Made by a program: the position numbers and the translations under genes. Below are positions 1 to 37,923 of a DNA stretch of 37,923 nucleotides, piece after piece (within the stretch, counting starts at the first letter, position 1; each line of letters starts with the position of its first letter). The stretch is taken from the NCBI RefSeq assembly GCF_004010195.1, contig NC_057752.1, positions 4,838,122-4,876,044 of the forward strand, read 5' to 3'. The notes beneath the pieces are model-generated. The model made no database searches and had not been told where the DNA came from. It saw only the letters and a program-made list of their open reading frames with translations. This stretch comes from Chiloscyllium plagiosum (Eukaryota).

Positions 1-204
1 GGTCAGGTTTGTGGATCTTGGGAAGGAGGTAGAACCGGGCAGTGTGGGTTTCCCGGACTATGAGGTTGGAAGCTGTGGGTGGGAGATCTCCTGAGGTGAT
101 GAGGTTCTGTATGGTCTGGGAGATGATGGTTTGGTGATGGGGGGTGGGGTCATGGTCAAGGGGGCAGTAGGAAGAGGTGTCCTCGAGTTGGCGTTTGGCT
201 TCAG
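1..204 (-). mobile_element. Penelope-like element reverse transcriptase fragment (N-terminal RT region)
   Basis: Minus strand translates (with a frameshift) as ..EAKRQLEDTSSYCPLDHDPTPHHQTIISQTIQNLITSGDLPPTASNLIV..TARFYLLPKIHKPD. The FYxLPKIHK motif is typical of PLE RTs. Runs off the window edge and abuts an oppositely oriented pLTR. Confidence 0.88.
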
Positions 205-333
205 TGATGATGAAGGGCTTTTGCCCGAAACGTCGATTTTGCCTGTCCTCGGATGCTGCCTGAACTGCTGTGCTCTTCCAGCACCACTGATCCAGAATCT
301 GGTTTCCAGCATCTGCAGTCATTGTTTTTACCT
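205..333 (+). mobile_element. PLE pseudo-LTR 3' unit with clipped hammerhead ribozyme core
   Basis: (a)TGATGA-A-GGGC-TTTT-GCCC-GAAAC-GTC at 207-234 (C3 replaced at the junction), followed by ggatgctgcctgaactgctg...cagcatctgcagtcattgtttttacc. Near-identical to 32401-32526. Confidence 0.85.
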
Positions 334-10049: not shown

Positions 10050-10282
10050 CAAAGTTAAAATCACCCAACGCCAGGTAGCTGTTTGTTCAATATATCATTT
10101 CACCTGCATGGCACTGTAATCTTTTGCTATAAATTGTGACTTATGATCCTGCTGCATAGCTACCTGATGAAGGAGCAGTGCTCTGAAAGCTAGTGCTTCC
10201 AAATAAACCTGTTTGACTATAACCTGGTGTTGTGTAATGTTTAAACTTTGTCCACCCCAGTCCAACACCGGCTCCTCCACAA
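10050..10282 (+). mobile_element. Non-coding PLE pLTR unit (family B) with short 5' inversion and TSD
   Basis: 5' gacaaagttaaaatcacccaacgccaggt is inverted relative to acctggtgttgtgtaatgtttaaactttgtc (10222-10252); ~29-nt tail. TSD CCTGT(T/C)CTGAGA at 10038-10049 and 10283-10294. Confidence 0.8.
10161..10195 (+). ncRNA. Minimal type I hammerhead ribozyme (family B)
   Basis: tac-CTGATGA-A-GGAGC-agt-GCTCT-GAAA-GCTA-gtg; palindromic AGCT in place of stem III; predicted cleavage after A10192. Confidence 0.78.
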
Positions 10283-16584: not shown

Positions 16585-16945
16585 TCTCTGCATATCGTCC
16601 CTGTGTCTAAGTGGGTTTTCTCCGGGTGCTACGGTTTCCAAAGATGTGCAGGTTAGGGTGGACTGGCCATGCTAAATTACCCCATAGTGCCCAGGGATGT
16701 GCAAGTTAGGGTGGATTGGCCGTGATAAATTGTCCCATAGTGTCCAGAGATGTGCAGGTTAGGGTGGATTGGCCGTGATAAATTGCCCCATTGTGTCCAG
16801 GATGTGTAGGATAGGTGGATTAGCCATGGGAAATACGGGGATAGGGTAAGGGTTGGGTCTGAGTGGGTTGCTCTTTGGAAAGTTGGTCTAAGACTTGATG
16901 GGCCGAATGGCCACTTTCCACACTGTGGAGATTCTGTGATTCTAT
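16585..16945 (+). mobile_element. 5'-truncated HE1-like V-SINE with internal 53-bp tandem amplification
   Basis: gatgtgcaggttagggtggattggcc unit starts at 16643, 16696, 16749 and 16801; CR1-like tail. Confidence 0.9.
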
Positions 16946-18655: not shown

Positions 18656-18910
18656 TTTTACAGGAGGACTGAATCATTTACAGAGCCTTAGGTGAGATTT
18701 GCATACACCATTTGCTTCCTGGAGCCACTTTTAGACTCTGGCTGAACCTGCTGGGAGAGGGTGGAACACCAGAACCTTGGAGCTAGTCTGCTCCAAGTCC
18801 CACAAAGACAAAAATATAGAATAACTGCCAAAATCAGATATCTCCAGGCAACTATTTGGACAGCTTAGCAACTACATTGAAGTGCTGTCAGACAGACAGC
18901 AAAATAGAAG

Positions 18911-20243
18911 GGACGGAAAGGTTTCCCGTGGGAGACTGGTTAGCAAGGTTAGATCTCATGGAATACAGGGAGAACTAGCCATTTGGATACAGAACTGGCT
19001 CAAAGGTAGAAGACAGAGGGTGGTGGTGGAGGGTTGTTTTTCAGACTGGAGGCCTGTGAACAGTGGAGTGCCACAAGGATCGGTGCTGGACCCTCTACTT
19101 TTTGTAATTTACATAAATGATTTAGATGTGAGCTTAAGAGGTACCGTTAGTAAATTTGCAGATGACACCAAAGTTGGAGGTGTAGTGGACAGCAAAGAAG
19201 GTTACCTCAGATTACAACAGAATCTTGACCAGATGGGCCAATGGGCTGAGAAATGGCAGATGGAGTTTAATTTAGATAAATGTGAGGTGCTGCATTCTGG
19301 GAAAGCAAATCTTAGCAGGACTTATGCACTTAATGGTAAGGTCCTAGGGAGTGTTGCTGAACAAAGAGACCTTGGAGTGCAGGCTCATAGCTCCTTGAAA
19401 GTGGAGTCGCAGGTAGATAGGATAGTGAAGGCGGCGTTTGGTACGCTTTCTTTTATTGGTCAGAGTATCGAGTACAGGAGTTGAGAGGTCATGTTGCATC
19501 TGAACAGGACATTGGTTCAGCCACTTTTGGAATATTATGTGCAATTCTGGTCTCCTTCCTTTCAGAAGGATGTTGTGAAATTTGAAAGAGTTCAGAAAAG
19601 ACTTACAATGGATGTTGCCAGGGTTGGAGAATTTGAGCTATTAGGGAGAAGCTGAACTGGCTGGGGCTGTTTTCAGAGGAGCAGGAAAATTGACGTTTCG
19701 GGCAGGAGCACTTCATCAGGCTCCTGCCCAAAACATCGATTTTCCTGATCCTCCAATGCTGCCTGACCTGCTGTGCTTTTTCAGCACCACTCTAATCTTG
19801 ACTCTGATCTCCAGCATCTGCAGTCCTCACTTTCACCTAGGGCTGTTTTCCCTGGAGTGGAGGCTGAGGGGTGACCTTATAGAGGTTTATAAAATCATGA
19901 GGGGCATGGATAGAATAAATAGACAAAGTCTTTTCCCTGGGGTGGGGGAGTCCAGAACTAGAGGGCATAGGTTTAAGGTGAGAGGAGAAAGATATAACAG
20001 AGACCTAAGGGGCAACAATTTTCATGCAGAGGGTGGTGCGTGTGTGGAATGAGCTGCCAGAGGAAGTGGTGGAGGCTGGTACAATTACAGCATTTAAAAA
20101 GGCATCTGGATGGGTATAGAACAGGAAGAGTTTGGAGGGATATGGACCAGGTGCTGGCAGGTGGGACTAAATTGGGTTGGGATTTCTGGTCGCATAGATG
20201 AGTTGAACCAAAGGGTCTGTTTGCGTGCTCTACAGCTCTATGA
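18911..20243 (+). mobile_element. 5'-truncated CR1 LINE (RT C-half plus 3' UTR)
   Basis: SGVPQGSVLDPLLFVIYINDL, SKFADDTK, WAEKWQMEFNLDKCEVLH, RLRGDLIEVYKIMRG; interrupted at 19675-19839. Confidence 0.95.
19675..19839. mobile_element. Non-coding PLE fold-back unit nested in CR1, with TSD
   Basis: TSD GGGCTGTTTTC at 19664-19674 and 19840-19850. Minus-strand CTGATGA-A-GTGC-tcct-GCCC-GAAACGTC at 19692-19719; pLTR tail on the plus strand. Confidence 0.85.
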
Positions 20244-21448: not shown

Positions 21449-22723
21449 AGAGACAAAAAAGTACAGATGTTGGAATCCAAAGTAGACAGGCAGGAGGCTG
21501 GAAGAACACAGCAAGCCAGACAGCATCGACATATCAGATATAACCCTTCTTCAGGACTGAGGGTAGGTGTGGGGGAGCTACAAACCTACAGACTCCCATA
21601 ACTACCTGGACTACATCTCCTCCCACCCAGTATCCTGCAAGAACACCATCCCACTCTCCCAGTTCCTCCACCTCTGCCACATCTGCTAAGACATTCCACT
21701 CGCGAGCATCCCAGATGTCCACCTATTTCAAACAACGTGCTTTTCCTCCCTTTGTCATCCAGACAGCCCTTCACTGCACCACCTCCATTCCCCACCCACT
21801 GCTCTAAACTGCCCCACACACAATAAAGACAGGGTCCCCCTTCTCCTCACCTACCATCCCACCAGTCTCTGCATCCAACGCATCATTCTTAAACACTTCT
21901 GCCAACTCCAACTAGACCACACCACCAAGAACATCTTTTCCTCCTCACCCCTGTCTGCCTTCCACAAGGACCGTTTCCTTTGACATTCCTTGGTTCATGC
22001 CACCCCACCACTGAACCCCCAGGTACCTTCCCCTGCAACCAGAAAAGATGCAAAACTTGCTGGTACATCACCCCTCTCCCTTCATTTCCATTCAGGGCCC
22101 CAAACAGTCCTTCTAGGTGAGACAGAGGTTCACCTGCCTCTCTTCCAGCACAGTTTACTGTATCCGATGTTCCCGATGTGGTCTTCTCTACATCGGGGAG
22201 ACCAAATATAAACTGAGGGAACGGCTCACTGAACATCTCAGCCGGGCCCACAGGGGCCAACTGGACCTCCCAGTCACCACCCATTTTAATTCCCCCTTCC
22301 CACTCCCTTTCCGACATGACCATCCTTGACCTCCTCCATTGCCAAAACAAACCACAGCATCTTTTGGCGGAATAACACCTCACCTTCCGTCTGGGCGGCC
22401 TACAGCCTGGAGGACTCAACATTGAGTATCCCAGTTTCAAATAACTTCCCTCCCCATCCCGACTCCCTTCCCAGCCCCTCCTCCTCATTCCCACTGCTCC
22501 CTTCCACCAACTGGATTCATTCCTCCCATTGACCAACCAGGTCGTACCCTCTACCTGTCTTCACCTATCCCCACCTCACCACCCTGCCCCCGCCTACCCC
22601 TTTATCTGCAGCTCCCCATACACCCACCCTGAGTCCTGAAGAAGGGTTACACCCAAAACGTCGACTTCTCCACCTCATGGTGCTGCCTGGCTTGCTGTGT
22701 TCTTCCAGCCTCTTGCTTGTCTA
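21449..22723 (+). mobile_element. Penelope-like element (Neptune-type) with RT thumb, GIY-YIG endonuclease and inverted pLTRs
   Basis: YKPTDSHNYLDYISSHPVSCKNTIPLSQFL and FTCLSSSTVYCIRCSRCGLLYIGETKYKLRERLTEHL. pLTR 22610-22723 is inverted at 21449-21578. TSD CTTTTA(T/C)CCTTGATT at 21434-21448 and 22724-22738. Confidence 0.93.
22632..22666 (+). ncRNA. Hammerhead ribozyme motif in the Penelope pLTR (probably inactivated)
   Basis: agtc-CTGAAGA-A-GGGT-tac-ACCC-aAAAC-GTC-gact; catalytic G12 reads A (CpG-type change). Confidence 0.72.
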
Positions 22724-23098
22724 CTTTTACCCTTGATTCCCTTACAGATGAAAAATCTGTCCATCTCAGCCTTGAATATACTGAATGATCCAGCTTCAGC
22801 AGACCCTTGTGGTAAAAACTGCCACAGGTTCCCTTCGGAGCAGAAATGTCTTCTCCTCTGTCTTAAATGAGTAATCCTTTATTCTGAGGTTATACCCTCT
22901 GGTCCTATATACTCTCTCAAGGGGAAAACAACCTTTCACCATCAACCCAGTCCAGTTTGTATGTTCAATAAAGTTCCCTCTTATTCTTCTAAATTCCGAA
23001 TACACCATTCTACTCTACATGAAATAAATGATATTTTTAAACAATAAAGCTTTCATTTAATGTTGGACTGGCACTTGCACATTCAGATAAATCCTGTG

Positions 23099-23346
23099 CT
23101 GAAAATGTGTTGCTGGAAAAGCGCAGCAGGTCAGGCAGCATCCAGGGAACAGGAGAATCGACGTTTCGGGCATAAGCCCTTCTTCAGGAATCAGGAGAAT
23201 CGACGTTTCGGGCATAAGCCCTTCTTTCGGGCTTATGCCCGAAACGTCGATTCTCCTGTTCCCTGGATGCTGCCTGACCTGCTGCGCTTTTCCAGCAACA
23301 CATTTTCAGCTCTGATCTCCAGCATCTGCAGACCTCACTTTCTCCT
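23099..23346. mobile_element. Non-coding PLE fold-back element (family A) with 15-bp TSD
   Basis: Perfect 81-bp inverted arms 23099-23179 / 23229-23309, ~37-nt tail. TSD CAGATAAATCCTGTG at 23084-23098 and 23347-23361. Confidence 0.93.
23160..23187 (-). ncRNA. Minimal type I hammerhead ribozyme (family A), intact core
   Basis: Reverse complement CTGAAGA-A-GGGC-TTAT-GCCC-GAAAC-GTC. Confidence 0.8.
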
Positions 23347-23394
23347 CAGATAAATCCTGTGTTGAGCTCTTGCCCTACAGGAGGTCTAACACAA

Positions 23395-25190
23395 CCTTGT
23401 ATTTATGTTTCACCTTTAACATATTTGAATGTGTCATTATGTTTCACAGGAGCAATATAAAGCAAAATATGACACTGGGCCACGCAAGGAGATATTACGT
23501 TAGGTTAGATAACCGAAAGCTTGACTAAGTGAGGAAAGGAAGGTGTAGGGACAAAGAGGTGTAGGGAGAGAGTTGCAGAGCTTGAGGCCTGGGCAGCTGA
23601 AGGTAGACGCGCCAATGTTGGAGCGATTAAGGTCAGGGAGCTGAAGAGGTCAGAATTGTAGGAACTCAGATCTTGGAGGGTAATGAGGTTGGAGGAGATT
23701 CCAGGGATGGGATTTGAAACCAAGGATGAGAATTTTAAAAAGATGACTTTGCTTGACCAGGAGCCAATGCAGATCAGTGAGTGCAGAGGTGATAAAGGAA
23801 TGGGATTTGGTGCGAGTTAAGACACAGAAGCAGAATTTTGGACACTCTCAGGTTTATGGAAGGTAGAATCAGAGAGACTAGTGTGAACTGAAATATACAA
23901 GTTTCAATGTAGTTAGGGTACGAATGAAGATTTCAACAGTAGATAAAGTCAAGACTGGGGTGAGGTCAGGTAATGTCTCAGAGGCAAAAATAGGATATCT
24001 GTGTTGGTGCAAGTGTTTGTTTGGAAGCTGATCTCAGTATCAAATATGACACTGAAGTTGTGAACAGCTATTGCCTGGGAGATGGGTTGAGTCAGTAGCA
24101 AGGAATAGAGTTTGACGCAGGAGATGAAAAACAATGGCTTCGATCTTCCCAACATTTAGTTGGAAGAAATTTCTGCTCCTGCAATCCTGGATGTTGGATA
24201 TGAGGTCTGATTATCGAGGGGAGAGAGCGCGAGAGAGCTATGTTGTCACTAAGGGGACAGGGTGTAGATGAGAAATAGGAGATGCATCAGGAGAGATTCA
24301 CAGGGGAACACCAGAGGGAATGAGAGTGGGATCAGGAGCAAGAGAGAAGGCATTGTGAGTGATTCTTTGGCTAAGATGAGAGAGATAAGAATGGAACCAG
24401 GAGAGAGCAGATCCCCCCCCCCCCCATTAGCTGGACAACAGTGGAGAGGTGTTGGATGAGGCTGGTATGGTCACCATGACAACAGTTGCACATAGGGAAA
24501 CTTTCCCTCCTCGACCTTTGTCCCAGTCACACAGGACGTCAATGCTCATTTTGATGAGAGCTGCTTCAGTATTGTGGCAGGGTCATAATCACAATTTGGA
24601 GGGATTCAAACATGGAGCTCGAGAAAAGATGCAAATGGACTTGGGAGGTGACAGGTTTGTCGAGAAAAGGGGAGGTTCGTCATGGGAGAGTAGTTTGCAA
24701 GGACAGCGAGGTCAAGAGTTCATTTGTTGAGGAGAGGGGTAACAATGGCAGATTTAAGAGAGAAGGGGCCAGCACCTGAAGAATAAAAATTATTAACCAT
24801 GTCAGCTAAGATCCAGGAGAAAAATTGGGTAGTGCATTGTTAAAAAGTTTGAGGGAACAGGAGGCAGGTCTTATGGACAAGGATGTGTTCAGAGAGAGCA
24901 CAAGGGCAGATAGGAAAGGAACTAAAGATAATTGCAAGTTAGGGTCAAGACAGGGTAGTTTGGCTCAGTGAATAAGTGGAAGGGAAATAACAGAAGAAAC
25001 AGAATGGATGATCATGAGCTCCACACGTTATTGGAGGTTAAATGGAGGAGACAGGAAGAGGGGTTTAAGATGACAGTTTGCAGTGGAGGAAAGAAGTTAG
25101 GGTTATCTTTGCATTTTAAGATGATGCTGTGATATTGAGCAGCTTTCGCAGATACAAGTGGGACACGATAATGTATTCAGTGGTCTGGCC
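23395..25190 (-). mobile_element. Old L2-clade LINE
   Basis: Minus strand HNTEAALIKMSIDVL (cf. HSTETALxKVxND) near 24530-24575; L2-like C-terminus and 3' end near 23400-23450; heavily degraded. Confidence 0.75.
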
Positions 25191-26475: not shown

Positions 26476-27118
26476 AAGAAAAACACCTTTGACCACAAGT
26501 CCATTAGGAAGTGGTCAGCACGTAGTGTCCTAGAGACCCTTCGGGAAAAGGAGAGGGCGGATCCTATCGAGCGGTTCCCTGAGCAGACTGTCAAAGCCAT
26601 TTGGCAGAATGCCTCATCGCCAGAACTTTCCAACAAGCACCAAGACATGGCTTGGCTGGTGGTGAGAAGGGCTCTGCCTGTGAGATCCTTTATGCACGCC
26701 CGGACTCTCAGCCGCACCGCACGCTGCCCTCGAAGCGGCTGCAGGGGGGACGAGACTGTCACACACCTCCTTCTGGAATGTGCCTATGCAGGGGAAGTCT
26801 GGAGAGGAATGTCGGGTCCAGGACTACGTGTTGAGGGACGCGCTGAAGCTTGGGGCAGCTGCCGCCAAGGCGTGGTGGGGAAAGACCACTGTGTAACATC
26901 TGCCTGTCTAACGAAGAACAGGGGGCCCATGCAGTCATTTGGGCTCTGCTGACGCCTCAGCTAATTATATGGGCATATGATTGAAAAATGTACAGACCTG
27001 TATAAAAATGATAAATTCTGATCTCTGTATGTAAATGTTGACATATGTATGGCATGACCAATTGTACAGACCATCAAATTATTTTATGAATAAAGTATAT
27101 TTTTTGAAATAAAAAAAA
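26476..27118 (+). mobile_element. 5'-truncated Tx1-like (L1 group) LINE with poly(A) and 11-bp TSD
   Basis: WQNASSPELSNKHQDMAWLVVRRALPVR..CPRSGCRGDETVTHLLLEC (CCHC knuckle), AATAAA and poly(A). TSD GTCAAGGATAG at 26465-26475 and 27119-27129; internal deletion near 26810. Confidence 0.92.
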
Positions 27119-28796: not shown

Positions 28797-28834
28797 GATT
28801 CCTGAAGAAGGGCTTATGCCCGAAACGTCGATTC
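28797..28834 (+). ncRNA. Minimal type I hammerhead ribozyme (family A), intact core
   Basis: gattc-CTGAAGA(28802-08)-A-GGGC-TTAT-GCCC-GAAAC-GTC(28827-29)-gattc. Confidence 0.82.
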
Positions 28835-28891
28835 TCCTGTTCCCTGGATGCTGCCTGACCTGCTGCACTTTTCCAGCAACACATTTCCAGC
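28799..28891 (+). mobile_element. Solo ~93-bp PLE pLTR unit with 12-bp TSD
   Basis: TSD TCTCAGTCTTGA at 28787-28798 and 28892-28903; sequence matches the right arm of 23099-23346. Confidence 0.88.
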
Positions 28892-29319
28892 TCTCAGTCT
28901 TGACACCTTTATAGAATGGGAACGAGTTCAGATTGCCACTATCTTTTGTGTGAGAGGGACAGAAGGACCACAATCTTGGGATGTATTTCAGAATGAGACA
29001 GTGCCTTCAAGAACCAATTAGGAGAACAGGGCAATTTAAAATAAAAACAAGGTTTTTATTTTATAATCAATGATCCTTAGCCTAATGTTTTCATGTGATT
29101 TCATTTTAATGATCTTGATATGATCTTCATTTTGAAACTTAAACCTGAATCCTGGTCTCAATGCTGGAATTAAAGGGTATGGGCCACAGACTAGTCATTA
29201 TCTCACTGAATGGCCTATTCCTGTTCCTATGTTTCAAGGTGTTGCCAATATATATTGCTACATTTCATAGAGGAAGGTTGATGGCTTAGTGGTATTGTTG
29301 CTGGACTACTAATCCAGAA

Positions 29320-29500
29320 AGGAGAAAGTGAGGACTGCAGATGCTGGAGATCAGAGCTTAAAAATGCGTTGCTGGAAAAGCGCAGCAGGTCAGGCAGCAT
29401 TCAAGGAGCAGGAGAATCGACGTTTCGGGCATACGTTTCCTGCTCCTCGGATGCTGCCTGACCTGTTGTGCTTTTCTAGCACCACTCTAATCTAGACTCT
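29320..29500. mobile_element. PLE fold-back unit with deleted ribozyme centre
   Basis: aggagaaagtgaggactgcagatgctgg..tcgacgtttcgggcat joined to ttcctgctcctcggatgctgcctgacctg; no CTGANGA retained. Confidence 0.8.
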
Positions 29501-29532
29501 TAACTTTTAAGGATAAGCAATAAATGCTGTCT

Positions 29533-29746
29533 GAAAATGTGTTGCTGGAACAGCGCAGCAGGTCAGGCAGCATCCAGGGAACAGGAGAATCGACGTTTCT
29601 GGCATAAGCCCTTCTGATTCCTGAGGAAGGGCTTATGCCCGAAATGTCGATTCTCCTGTTCCCTGGATGCTGCCTGACCTGCTGCGCTTTTCCAGCAACA
29701 CATTTTCAGCTCTGATCTCCAGCATCTGCAGACCTCACTTTCTCCT
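29533..29746. mobile_element. Non-coding PLE fold-back element (family A) with 15-bp TSD and hammerhead core
   Basis: TSD CAATAAATGCTGTCT at 29518-29532 and 29747-29761; arms ~29531-29615 / 29625-29709; CTGAGGA-A-GGGC-TTAT-GCCC-GAAAT-GTC at 29621-29648. Confidence 0.92.
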
Positions 29747-31279
29747 CAATAAATGCTGTCTAGCCAGCAACGCTCATGAATAATTTTTTTTTTATCCAGC
29801 TGGAGGTCTTATCACAGGCTGTGGTACACTGCAGAATGGTGTCCATGTAAAGATTTCCTACTACACACTTCTATACTTCTGAGTGAAGAGTAAAGATGTC
29901 CAGTGTAGATCACAGATTTAAAATGAAATATTTCTGAAATAAATGGGAGCACAGTTTCCGGATAATTATTAACAATTCATCATAAACGACACCTAAAGTA
30001 GATTTTGAGATCAAATGTGTTCTGGGCAGACCTGTCCCTGTTCCCAGATGACTGCTGAAATACATCAGATTTCTTACAATTCAATTGCTTGGCGCCTGTC
30101 ACCGCATGTGGGAGGTGAATCCTTCCACAATGTCAGTCCGTGTCTCTGGATGTTAGTGAGGTTGATCCCCAAGATGCTGTATTGTCCTTGCGCCATCTAA
30201 ACCATCCCACACATCTAAGAGAGGCTGAATACGGCGCGTCATTGCTCAACAAAAATGCAACCTACACATGCAATTGTGTAACGACGTGAAAACAATAAGA
30301 TTCTCTGCTCTCCATTCGCCTCCCCAGTCAGGTGACAGCTGGGATTTAATTTTTATACTGCCTACAGCAGTGCACGAGGCTTGCGAGACGACAGGCTTCC
30401 AATGTTAATTCATCCTCGTTGCCCAGACGGATTTGTCAGCTGAAATAACCCCATAGCCACCAACATTCTGTGTCTAAAAGTAGCTATTACACTTTGAATG
30501 CAAGAACACCAAATGTCACTTATGCACACAGACCTCCCACACACACACGTTGTGTTTCGCCCAGTTCCTTAGTAAATTCAGAGACTGACTTGAGAGCTCT
30601 GAAAATGACTTCATAAAGTAACAATAAAACCTCTGCAGCTGACTTGCTGCATTCTGGTTCAGCAGCGGAACTGAGAGTTTCAGGTATTAAGGGAAACTGA
30701 GCCAGCGGCTTTTACTGCTGCTGTTCGGCATTGTTGCACGGATTACCACACCGCTTCCTCCAATTTCCTTATCGCGACAGATTTGCAAGTCTGCTATCAC
30801 GAGAAAGGAGGATACGTTTGGTCGCATGAATGCTGGAGTTGCATAGAGACTGATGTATTCCAGTTGTTGTTTTCAAGTGACCGTGGCAATACACAACCAA
30901 ACATGAATTTTAACCGCAGCATACTTTAGCTTGCTGGCTTTAGGCCTCTCACAACCTATCAAAAGATGATAAAAGGACCCAGCCGGTTACTGTAACCGCT
31001 GCTTGTGCAGTTGGCATGTGGTCTGCTGACTGGGAATTGAATCAAAATTCTAATTCTCAAGTCGCGTCAGTGCACAGAGTACAGGGCAACTGTTCAATCA
31101 GCTGCTCCAAGAACCTGCTGAATCTCTCATTCTCGCATGTTGTAACTGAAACAAAGCTGAATCTGAACCCAGGCTACGGCTCCATTCATTGTAAAGCTGG
31201 TACTGTTGTGTGAACTTAGTATGGTGAGCCTCCTTTGTAGTACTTATGCACTAGCAATGAGGGGATCGAAAATTACAAT

Positions 31280-34192: not shown

Positions 34193-34590
34193 TCATAGAG
34201 TCTTAGAGTCCTGCAGCACAGAGACAAGCCCTTTGGGCCAAATTGGTCCATGCCGACCAAAATGTCCATCCACTCTAACCCCACTCCCTGCACTTGGCCC
34301 ATATCCTTCCAAACCTTTCCTTTCCATGTACTTGTCCAAATGCCTTTTAAATGTTGTCAATGTATCCACCTCAACCACTTCTGCAGGCAGCTCATTCCAT
34401 GTGCATACCACCCTCTGTGTAAAAAAGTTATCCCTTGGGTTCACTATTATTCTTTCCCCTCTAACCTTAAACTGATGCCCTCTAGTCCTTGATTCCCCAA
34501 CACTGGGAAAAAGACTGAGTGCATTCACCCTATCCGTGCCTCTCATGATCTTATACACTTCTATCAGGTCCCCCCTCAGTCTTGCCCTAT
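34193..34590 (-). mobile_element. CR1 LINE 3' end
   Basis: RLRGDLIEVYKIMRGTDRVNALSLFPSVGESRTRGHQFKV..FFTQRVVCTWNELP. Confidence 0.92.
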
Positions 34591-34664
34591 GATAGTAGTG
34601 TTGAAGAGGATAGTGTTGCCCTATGATAGAAGAGGAACACCTATACAAGGTATTCGCCAAAAAC

Positions 34665-34985
34665 GGTGAGAGTATGTTTCCCCTCAGGGGAGAGTCTAAC
34701 ACAAGAGGGCAGAATCTCCGCATAAAGGGGTGATAATTTAAAACTGACATAAGGAGGAATTTCTTCGTCTTTGGAACTTTTTGCCACAAAGAGCTATGGG
34801 GTTGATCCCCTTGTGTACATTTGAGGCTGAGACAGATAGATTGTTGGTTGTAGGGGAATTGTGGGTTTGGGGGAAAAGGCAGGCATGTGGGCATGAGGAA
34901 TGTCAGATTAGCCCTGATTCTATTGAATGGTGGAGCAAGCTCAACGAGTTGAACAGCCTATTTCTGTTTTTATTTCTTATGGTCT
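34665..34985 (+). mobile_element. CR1 LINE 3' end (older subfamily)
   Basis: MFPLRGESNTRGQNLRIKG..RRNFF and the 3' UTR tattgaatggtggagcaagctc. Confidence 0.75.
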
Positions 34986-35004
34986 TATCGATTCCAACAA
35001 TTTC

Positions 35005-35215
35005 CTAACATCACACGTTAATCTAACCGGAAGCGGCAGGGACAGACCACTATAAACATCGGAGGAAACATCAAAGAAGCGCTTCGCAGGAGGCTCCCAA
35101 GCACTGATGATGTCGCCTAGCCAGGGGACGAAACGTTTGCAACAAAAACTTCCAGCTCGGCGAACAGAACCACAACAACGAGCACCCGAGCTACAAATCT
35201 TCGCACAAACTTTGA
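35005..35215 (+). mobile_element. PLE pLTR unit (family C)
   Basis: CpG-rich unit with TATAAA at 35051 upstream of a hammerhead motif; unrelated in sequence to families A and B. Confidence 0.75.
35101..35140 (+). ncRNA. Minimal type I hammerhead ribozyme (family C)
   Basis: GCA-CTGATGA-T-GTCgCCT-agcc-AGGgGAC-GAAAC-GTT-TGC; stem I GCA/TGC, palindrome AACGTT. Confidence 0.8.
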
Positions 35216-35505
35216 AGCATCCTTCCACTATTACCCTCTGCTTCCTACCATCAAGACAATAGTGTATCCAATTTGTTAGCTCCCCCTGGATTCCATGTAA
35301 TCTGACCTTCCAGAGCAGCCTACCATGTGGAACCTTATGAAAGGCCTTACAGAAATCCAGAGAGAGTACGTCTACTATTCTGCCTTCATCAACCTTCCTG
35401 ATCACTTCATCAAAGAACTCAAACATATTTGTGAGCTATGATCTCCCATCCACAAAGCCATGCCGACGATTCCTAATCAAACTTTGTCTTTCCAAATGCA
35501 TGTAT
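35216..35505 (-). mobile_element. CR1 RT fragment
   Basis: FEFFDEVIRKVDEGRIVDVLSLDFCKAFHKVPHGRLLWKV. Confidence 0.9.
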
Positions 35506-35507
35506 AT

Positions 35508-36592
35508 GGAGTCATAGAGATATACTGCACGGAAACAGATCCTTCGGTCCATGCTGACCAGATATCCCAACCTAATCTAGTCCCATTTACCAGCCCTTGG
35601 CCCATATCTGTCCAAGCCTTTCATTTTTAGATACCCATCCAGATGCGTTTTAAATGCTGTAATTGTACAATTCTTCCTCTGGCATCGCATTCCATACACA
35701 CACCACCTTCTGCGTGAAAAAGTTGCCCCGTAGGTCTCTTTTATATCTTTCCCCTCTCACCCTAAACCTATGCTCTCTAGTTCTGGACTCCCCCACCCCA
35801 GGGAAAAAACCTTGTCTGTTTACTCTATACATGCCCCTCATAATTTTATAAACCTCTATAAGGTCACCCCTCAGCCTCCGATACTCCAGGGAAAACAGCC
35901 CCAGCCTGTTCAGCCTCTCCCTGTAGCTCAAATCCTCCAACCCTGGCAACATCCTTGTTATTCTTTTCTGAACCCTTTCAAGTTTCACATCTTTCCGATA
36001 GGAAGGAGACCAGAATTGCACGCAATATTCCAACAGTGGCCTAACCAATGTCCTGTACAGCCGCAACATGACCTCTCAACTCCTATACTCAATGCTCTGA
36101 CCTATAAAGAAAAGCATACCAAATGCCTTCTTCATTATCCTATCCATCTGCGACTCTATTTTCAAGAAGCTATGAACTTGCACTCCAAGGTCTCTTTGTT
36201 CAGCAACACTCCCGAGGACCTTACTATTAAGTATGTAAATCCTGCTAAGATTTGCTTTCCCAAAAATGCAGCACCTCACATTTATCTAAATTAAACTCCA
36301 TCTGCCACTCCTCACTCCTCCGATCAAGATCCTGTTGTAATCGGAGGTAATCTTCTCCGCTGTCCACCACACTTACAATTTTGGTGTCATCTGCAAACTG
36401 ACAACCATACCTCCTATGTTTATATCCAAAGTAGAGGGCCCAGCACCGATCCTTGTGGCACTCCACTGGTCACAGGCCTCCAGTCTGAAAAACAACCCTC
36501 CATCACCACCCTCTGTCTTCTACCTTTGAGCCAGTTCTGTATCCAAATGGCTAGTTCTCCCTGTATTCCATGAGATCTAACCTTGCTAATCA
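35508..36592 (-). mobile_element. 5'-truncated CR1 LINE, same subfamily as 18911-20243
   Basis: FADDTKIV, WQMEFNLDKCEV, MLRLYRTLVRPLLEYCVQFWSP, RLRGDLIEVYKIMRG; tail ctatgactc. Confidence 0.95.
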
Positions 36593-36959: not shown

Positions 36960-37923
36960 GAGAACAGAAGCGAGTCAAACAGTCAGGGCAGGCAGGGACA
37001 AGGTTGGACTAATAAATGAAACTGCATTTATTTCAAAGCAAGGGGCCTAACAGGGAAGGCACATGAACTCAGGGTATGGTTAGGAACATGGGACTGGGAT
37101 ATCATAGCAATTACAGAAACGTGGCTCAGGGATGGGCAGGACTGGCAGCTTAATGTTCCAGGATACAAATGCTACAGGAAGGATAGAAAGGGAGGCAAGA
37201 GAGGAGGGGGAGTGGCGTTTTTGATAAGGGATAGTATTACAGCTGTACTGAGGGAGGATATTCCCGGAAATACATCCAGGGAAGTTATTTGGGTGGAACT
37301 GAGAAATAAGAAAGGGATGATAATCTTATTGGGATTGTATTATAGTCTCCCTAATAGTCAGAGGGAAATTGAGAAATGAACTTGTAAGGAGATCTCAGCT
37401 ATCTGTAAGAAAAATAGGGTAGTTATGGCAGGGGTTTTTAACTTTCCAAACATAGACTGGGACTGCCATAGTGTTAAAGGTTTAGATGGAGAGAAATTTG
37501 TTAAGGGCGTACAAGACAATTTTCTGATTCAGTATGTGGATGTATCTACTGGAGAAGACTCAAAACTTGACCTACTCTTGGGAAATAAGGCAGGGCAGGT
37601 GACTGAGTTGTCAGTGGGGGAGCACTTTGGGGCCAGCGACCATAATTTTATTAGATTTAAAATAGTGATGGAAAAGAATAGACCAGATCTAAAAGTTGAA
37701 GTTCTAAATTGGAGAAAGGCCAATTTTGACGGCATTAGGCAAGAACTTTCAAAAGCTGATTGGGGGCAGATTTTCGCAGGTAAACGGACGCTGGAAAATG
37801 GGAAGCCTTCAGAAACGAGATAACAAGAATCCAGAGAAAGTATATTCCTGTCAGGGTGAAAGGAAAGGCTGGTAGGTGTAGGGAATGCTGGATGACTAAA
37901 GAAATTGAGGGTTTGGTTAAGAA
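36960..37923 (+). mobile_element. CR1 LINE ORF2 5' part (APE endonuclease), runs off the window
   Basis: NCIYFKARGL..DIIAITETWL..YRKDR..GGGVAF..FNFPNIDW..LDLLL..SDHN; in-frame stop near 37377. Confidence 0.95.

Follow-up and report, generated by a model that had tools for sequence, protein, structure and literature searches.

The insert at 23099-23346 of the stretch of DNA analysed here (37,923 nt; hereafter, the window) raises the question of what a short palindrome with a hammerhead ribozyme on its minus strand is: a mobile unit in its own right, or a product left by another element. The original prediction had taken it for a young, non-autonomous unit of the retrozyme or MITE-like type. 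As described below, the insert is real and recent and is made up of the ribozyme-bearing terminus of a Penelope-like element (PLE), present in two copies placed head to head; this layout has already been described for PLEs and is not a new kind of element. We consider it most probable (at about 0.75) that the insert arose as a one-off when an endonuclease-bearing PLE integrated, the two arms of the insert being copied separately and then joined. Published work is cited by PMC number or DOI; PMC6155905 was used as background only.

Anatomy and recent origin of the insert

A 15-nt target sequence flanks the insert (248 nt) on either side (Table 1). The exact repeat is 16 nt long (23083-23098 and 23346-23361); because its first T fits the flank as well as the element, the target-site duplication (TSD) was assigned as 15 nt, the length originally predicted. 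As a chance control, 20,000 random 248-nt segments of the window were drawn, none of which, locus-like draws aside, had a repeat of this type longer than 10 nt (a length reached in 4 cases); five further draws gave 16 nt and were taken as the insert locus itself (about 4 expected).

Table 1. Positions of the parts of the insert and of related insertions, numbered from the first letter of the window
Feature	Position	Strand	Remarks
Left TSD	23084-23098	+	15 nt; match reaches 23083
Inverted pLTR copy	23099-23192	-	Starts 5 nt upstream of hammerhead C3 and ends at tail start; without tail
Minimal type I hammerhead, complete core	23155-23192	-	By sequence; predicted cut between 23160 and 23159
Duplicate	23192-23226	-	Exact 35-nt copy of 23150-23184; partial hammerhead without C3-U4-G5
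Fold-back centre	23222-23228		7-nt loop of 30-bp palindrome
Direct pLTR copy	23229-23309	+	5'-truncated at helix II start; without catalytic 5' half; equal to inverted arm over 81 nt
PLE tail	23310-23346	+	37 nt; on one arm only
Right TSD	23347-23361	+	Exact repeat
Related PLE family	21449-22727		About 77% alike in pLTR; same layout, long coding direct arm
Related family	1-333		82% alike; short direct pLTR and tail joined to an inverted arm running off the window
Sister single arm, same subfamily	28797-28892	+	Without tail and without inverted arm; 12-nt TSD
Sister fold-back, same subfamily	29531-29746		Shares outer ends and tail with the insert; has its own TSD and another centre

The predicted perfect arms (23099-23179 and 23229-23309) are 100% complementary (0 differences in 81 nt; 82 nt when one TSD base is counted), and the unpaired tail, expected at about 37 nt, has exactly that length. 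The inverted arm is longer by 13 nt, which the direct arm lacks at its 5' end. The minus-strand fold of the insert was computed at -190.8 kcal/mol (z = -22.9 against 200 shuffles), which agrees with the expectation that a transcript would fold into a long hairpin. The 49-nt spacer between the arms is, however, not a plain loop: it holds the 35-nt duplicate of Table 1, which had been missed and which creates a second, inner palindrome of 30 bp (23192-23221 and 23229-23258). The insert had also been described as free of coding sequence. In line with this, Pfam gives no match for the 101-aa stop-to-stop frame that covers the insert, but one frame of the direct arm continues open to the end of the tail. 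This frame (23229-23346) has an ATG at 23267 and may correspond to the first codons of the parent ORF; an open frame is expected here, because the pLTR and tail of a PLE hold the first codons of its ORF.

As for the age of the insert, a 3,203-nt contig from organism A (run X1) covers 23327-23680 without differences and represents the filled site. In run X9 of organism B, the match of a 685-nt contig begins only at 23346 (contig position 337) and has 8 differences over 322 letters (about 2.5%). Since an empty site would match from there, we infer that the site is empty in organism B, on the basis of the matching part of the contig (its 336 upstream letters aside). A flank contig of run X5 starts at 23361 at a depth of 2.5, from which the filled or empty state is not readable. 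The letter C at 23263, typical of the subfamily of the insert, makes up about 40% of the depth in X1 and X5 (organism A) versus about 3% in X9 (organism B); the subfamily therefore expanded after the split of A and B. The predicted youth of the insert is thus supported: it is filled in A and apparently empty in B, and its arms are identical.

The hammerhead core and its folding

The hammerhead core predicted on the minus strand is intact at the level of the sequence, with C3 at 23187, stem II at 23168-23179 and GAAAC-GUC at 23160-23167. Helix I has 5 bp with one U-U mismatch and is followed by CUGAAGA; an extra A precedes helix II, which has 4 bp with a 4-nt loop; in GAAAC-GUC, 15.2/16.2 are palindromic and helix III is absent. 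These features match the traits of minimal hammerheads (min-HHRs) in metazoan pLTRs (PMC4209133), namely a short helix I, an extra nucleotide between 9 and 10.1, the G10.1-C11.1 pair, the palindromic 15.2-16.2 and the lack of helix III. In contrast to the schistosome min-HHRs, in which helix II has 7-8 bp, that of the insert has 4 bp (PMC4209133). According to the same paper, min-HHRs are mostly solo and are also found as opposite-strand pairs 100-700 bp apart; in the extracts of it used here, no shark family is named among the min-HHR examples.

The complete core is present in just one of the three ribozyme copies of the insert; the 35-nt duplicate and the direct arm both lack its 5' part. 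A check with hammerhead covariance models had also been suggested. Rfam was silent despite the core: there was no match at the gathering score across the window, and the 13 weak matches at E up to 10 in 22500-23500 included no hammerhead. The weak microRNA matches among them reflect the hairpin only.

In the full minus-strand transcript the core sits within the stem, and the 35-nt duplicate can replace it in pairing. The idea that the hairpin fully locks the ribozyme was rejected, since the duplicate lowers the computed cost of the monomer hammerhead fold to 5.6 kcal/mol (13.0 kcal/mol for a type III fold across the duplicate). In vitro, cleavage was absent for single min-HHRs and slight for dimers (PMC4209133); the hammerhead of PAc, a lizard PLE, needs protein, and its cleavage is dispensable for insertion in vitro (PMC11167929). 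The ribozyme of the insert is probably a passenger in the making of it, and no result of the analysis suggests that cleavage took part.

Two more hammerhead-core motifs, of unrelated sequence and probably belonging to other PLE families, were seen at 10164-10188 and 35104-35134, the latter within a LINE RT fragment. Other repeats in the window are LINE-type RT and endonuclease-like fragments (18825-19484, 34193-35435, 35734-36294 and 37020-37379; some in long inverted pairs), two of which have RVT_1 matches in Pfam; a fragment of another non-LTR retrotransposon with a zf-RVT match (26476-26952; E 7.7e-12); and three tandem copies with a 53-nt period inside an apparent SINE (16634-16801).

Related insertions, fixed ends and varying centres

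The window was searched by BLAST with its own copy 29616-29748. There were 17 hits, 13 of which form eight insertions; four short older hits were set aside. Four insertions belong to the subfamily of the insert (23099, 28797, 29318 and 29531; main arms 93-99% alike) and four to related families (1-333, 19675, 21449 and 32397; 77-82% alike). Two of the eight consist of a single arm; the other six are head-to-head fold-backs, no two of which share a centre. Among the closest relatives the outer ends are common, and the centre and length differ in each; the sister at 29531 has 3 differences in 81 positions, where the arms of the insert have none. TSDs were found for five of the seven insertions tested, the exceptions being 29318 and 32397. 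In the fold-back at 29318-29500, in which no TSD was found, the arms, at 93% and 85% likeness to the reference copy, belong to different subfamilies; it represents either one event on two RNAs or two insertions. In the fold-back at 19675-19838, the inverted arm starts inside the pLTR, away from the tail sites.

All four subfamily insertions in the window are stubs, and none is joined to coding sequence there; the link of the pLTR to an ORF with RT and GIY-YIG was seen in the related families (77-82% identity). The insertion at 21449-22727, which lies about 360 bp from the 248-nt insert and looks like a decayed Neptune-like PLE, codes for the end of the RT, the RT-EN linker and a GIY-YIG domain (PF01541; E 1.1e-05). 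The linker has C-x4-C-x2-C at about 22030-22060, which fits the CX2-5CxxC motif found between RT and EN in the Neptune clade (PMC8557442). The tail of this insertion is on its short inverted pLTR only, and its TSD is 15 nt with one mismatch. Judging from this neighbour family, the parent clade of the insert is probably Neptune. In the insertion at 1-333, the inverted arm (1-207) codes for a putative RT-like N-terminal stretch, labelled as such by a motif. For the corresponding 68-aa piece (2-205), no match was found in PDB sequences and only a weak DUF in Pfam; it hit automatically named Atlas clusters with recognition below the mark of the tool. Metagenome scans with two family motifs gave 0 stretches each, and a literature search by title and start of abstract found no description of the PLE family of the insert in sharks.

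For the element ends and abundance, the direct arm with the right flank (23229-23680) was compared at 90% likeness with three DNA runs and one RNA run. In the DNA runs, 51,891 of 16,500,310, 52,441 of 25,246,529 and 48,944 of 36,030,436 contigs fell on it. The summed contig depth was 3-17 million on the arm versus about 2-9 over most of the flank; this measure does not give copy number, and its use as such was rejected. The comparison shows that the subfamily belongs to a very abundant repeat, with which four insertions in 38 kb agree.

Among 24 of the 666 rows of loose contig ends, piles were seen at 23306/23311 and 23345-23348 in all three DNA runs, and the continuations past them had low agreement (0.33-0.43) and were AT-rich. 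These piles coincide with the two tail boundaries; in the lizard PAc, two measured RT start sites bound the tail (PMC11167929). At the other end, the 5' starts of nine arms (those at 19675, 21449 and 29434 being left out) lie at -5, +3, +8, -5, +13, +4, -5, +1 and -3 relative to C3. Thus, the 3' ends are at two fixed sites and the 5' ends within -5 to +13 of C3 in nine of nine arms. None of the nine starts at the ribozyme cut site (+28), which argues that the template was uncut RNA, as in PAc. Among the seven subfamily arms tested, three start at exactly -5 and none further upstream. The arms at 23192, 28797 and 29616 share this start letter 5 nt before C3, which may be the RNA start; the first G was perhaps copied from a cap. 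What we take to be an initiator-like word lies at the same place in the inverted arm of the neighbour family (21553-21560). The original prediction had set a unit with fixed ends against plain truncation products with random ends: the ends are indeed not random, but the fixed piece is a single pLTR arm and not the hairpin.

The last result bears on whether the 248-bp palindrome itself propagates as a unit, through transcription, cleavage by its ribozyme and reinsertion. The clean TSD, the perfect arms and the complete core would suit such a unit, and so would the pairing of the antisense arm with the partial copy, by which the complete hammerhead could be looped out at the modest cost given above. 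Among the eight window insertions, however, there is no second copy with the centre of the insert; centre and length vary among the relatives, the insert lacks two complete hammerheads in tandem, none of the nine arms begins at the cut site, and single min-HHRs were inactive in vitro (PMC4209133). A MITE- or retrozyme-like unit, as originally proposed, is therefore not supported, and we consider it highly improbable.

The comparison with the two classes is as follows. MITEs are uniform units with terminal inverted repeats, present in many copies. The six fold-backs of the window have six centres, and the tail is outside the stem. As with MITEs and the Harbinger palindromes of frogs (PMC5625713), the insert is short and self-complementary, can fold alone and may be an ADAR substrate; unlike them, its arms are not terminal, its centre differs in each copy, its TSD is long and variable, and its origin is a retroelement. 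The insert resembles the animal non-LTR retrozymes, which have been reported in one chondrichthyan, in being non-coding and related to pLTRs and in having a type I hammerhead (bioRxiv 10.64898/2026.07.22.740005; PMC7229834). Retrozymes, however, are head-to-tail tandems with a complete hammerhead per unit, whereas the insert is head-to-head with one complete core, and at least two head-to-tail units with complete hammerheads, by which a retrozyme is recognised, are absent from it. Retrozymes are further recognised by circular RNA and by ends that self-cleavage sets; on the latter point, 0 of the nine arms have their start at the cut site.

Probable integration by a PLE, transcripts and implications

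The layout, the tail, the hammerhead and the TSD support the PLE origin of the insert. Published insertions of endonuclease-bearing (EN+) PLEs, of the Penelope/Poseidon and Neptune groups, have an inverted 5'-truncated copy head-to-head with a direct copy and a tail on one arm (PMC8557442; PMC3846280; PMC11167929), and the insert shares with them the tail of 30-40 nt at one end, the palindromic junction, the TSD and the two fixed 3' ends. Four of five features of such insertions fit the insert (inverted pLTR beside a direct one, tail, min-HHR, and TSD with a presumed empty site). The insert differs from them in that both arms are shorter than 130 nt and non-coding, in the clustering of the 5' ends of its subfamily at the hammerhead and in the very high copy number. 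The rotifer PLEs likewise have palindromes at the inverted junction, but TSDs of 8-10 bp versus the 15-16 nt of the insert (PMC3846280). Both target strands are nicked and extended by the purified PAc protein, which prefers AT-rich targets and for which a dimer is predicted (PMC11167929). Mobilisation by a PLE RT and GIY-YIG enzyme supplied in trans, as predicted, is supported, the insert itself encoding nothing.

In our preferred reading, the GIY-YIG domain would make staggered nicks 15-16 nt apart, and each nicked target strand would prime its own cDNA, one from each tail site, on a template uncut by the ribozyme. With an RT start some 130 nt away from the RNA 5' end, run-off would give exactly these stubs. 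The cDNA ends would then be joined, with microhomology, by a snap-back on helix II and a jump to the other cDNA, which the junction letters at the centre appear to fit; a slip of 42 nt during joining would leave the 35-nt duplicate. The identity of the arms would reflect the recent copying of both from a single young template, and not a design as terminal inverted repeats. Several observations fit this reading less well: the subfamily was not seen joined to coding sequence in the window (four of four insertions are stubs); the three starts at exactly -5 are not predicted by plain random truncation; the inverted arm of 19675-19838 starts off the tail sites; and 29318-29500 has no TSD.

Head-to-head palindromes of rotifer PLEs have been explained instead by self-priming (PMC3846280), in which a hairpin arises when a single cDNA, or else an antisense template, folds onto itself at helix II and is copied. 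The identity of the arms would follow from this, and the centre lies on the self-complementary helix II, where four letters fit a snap-back, so that this part of the proposal fits. The inverted arm, however, outreaches the 5' end of the direct arm by 13 nt, and its own end falls precisely on the inner tail site, where RT is known to start; in the neighbour insertion, it is the inverted arm that carries the tail, and the direct arm has none. The 13 extra letters together with this inverted-only tail argue that neither inverted arm simply copies its direct arm, and we regard self-priming of the whole hairpin as unlikely.

Separate priming of the two arms is compatible with more than one source of RNA. 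With the same integration chemistry, the template may have been a short, non-autonomous, SINE-like solo pLTR RNA of about 130-150 nt whose start lies 5 nt ahead of the hammerhead. This differs from our preferred reading in the RNA source only, and both can hold together. The shared start at -5 in three of seven subfamily arms, the stub form of all four subfamily insertions in the window and the expansion of the subfamily in organism A (23263 C, as above) favour it, and in rotifers the pLTR sequences alone suffice for mobilisation in trans (PMC3846280). An autonomous transcript from the 5' pLTR would, however, give the same stub, since the RT starts near the start of the ORF; moreover, related families with the same clustered 5' ends carry coding sequence, and one frame is open through the tail. 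The run-off stubs would fit either template, and we hold the short RNA to be possible, though the less probable source.

RNA was represented by about 2% of run X21 (a single-cell poly(A) library; 12,955,460 records), of which 2,054 records fell on the arm, in both orientations. The unique flank had 0 RNA depth and no pile of starts or ends was seen, which is uninformative with this portion of a fragmented poly(A) single-cell library. Fifteen reads join opposite strands at the start of 23229-23680; hairpin-type copies are therefore transcribed somewhere. A>G differences occurred at 10 places in RNA versus 1-3 in DNA. Within the GAAA of the core (23242-23244), they made up 37 of 444, 59 of 447 and 72 of 460 reads in the usual sense-RNA class, versus 4 of 297, 6 of 300 and 5 of 308 reads of the other class and 0.04-0.37% in DNA; that is, a family-wide, strand-biased A>G of 8-16% in X21 RNA against less than 0.4% in DNA. 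Strand bias was tested for 15 of 40 rows (19 more rows exist): all six A>G rows on the arm were biased (P 0.003 or less), and seven of the nine other rows were unbiased. The biased rows also included 23268 T>C and 23309 G>A, and a few highly expressed loci can therefore mimic an editing signal. One A>G site falls in the tail, which is unpaired, and among the X21 rows considered the antisense reads showed no corresponding T>C excess. ADAR editing of PLE hairpins at the hammerhead core is thus possible, as a lead read against unmatched DNA. Heavy editing of Penelope in a lizard has already been reported (PMC5625713).

As a single locus the insert is ordinary; its value is that of a clean and recent specimen, with an apparently empty counterpart site, identical arms, ends that fall on both RT start sites and a readable junction. 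It offers a test case for how PLEs finish integration, by double priming or by self-priming, a step left unvalidated in PMC11167929. Its family is a large source of short perfect hairpins in the genome. Tentatively, and with more doubt than confidence, we suggest that in this shark-like lineage a short, capped non-coding RNA starting just before the hammerhead has become the main substrate of the PLE enzyme; the stubs would then be complete run-off copies rather than truncations, double priming would make ready-made hairpins of many of them, numbering on the order of 10^4-10^5 or more per genome, and the GAAA core of transcribed hairpins would be edited by ADAR. If so, such editing would disable the ribozyme, and the young insertions would constitute a natural record of the second-strand steps in PLE integration.
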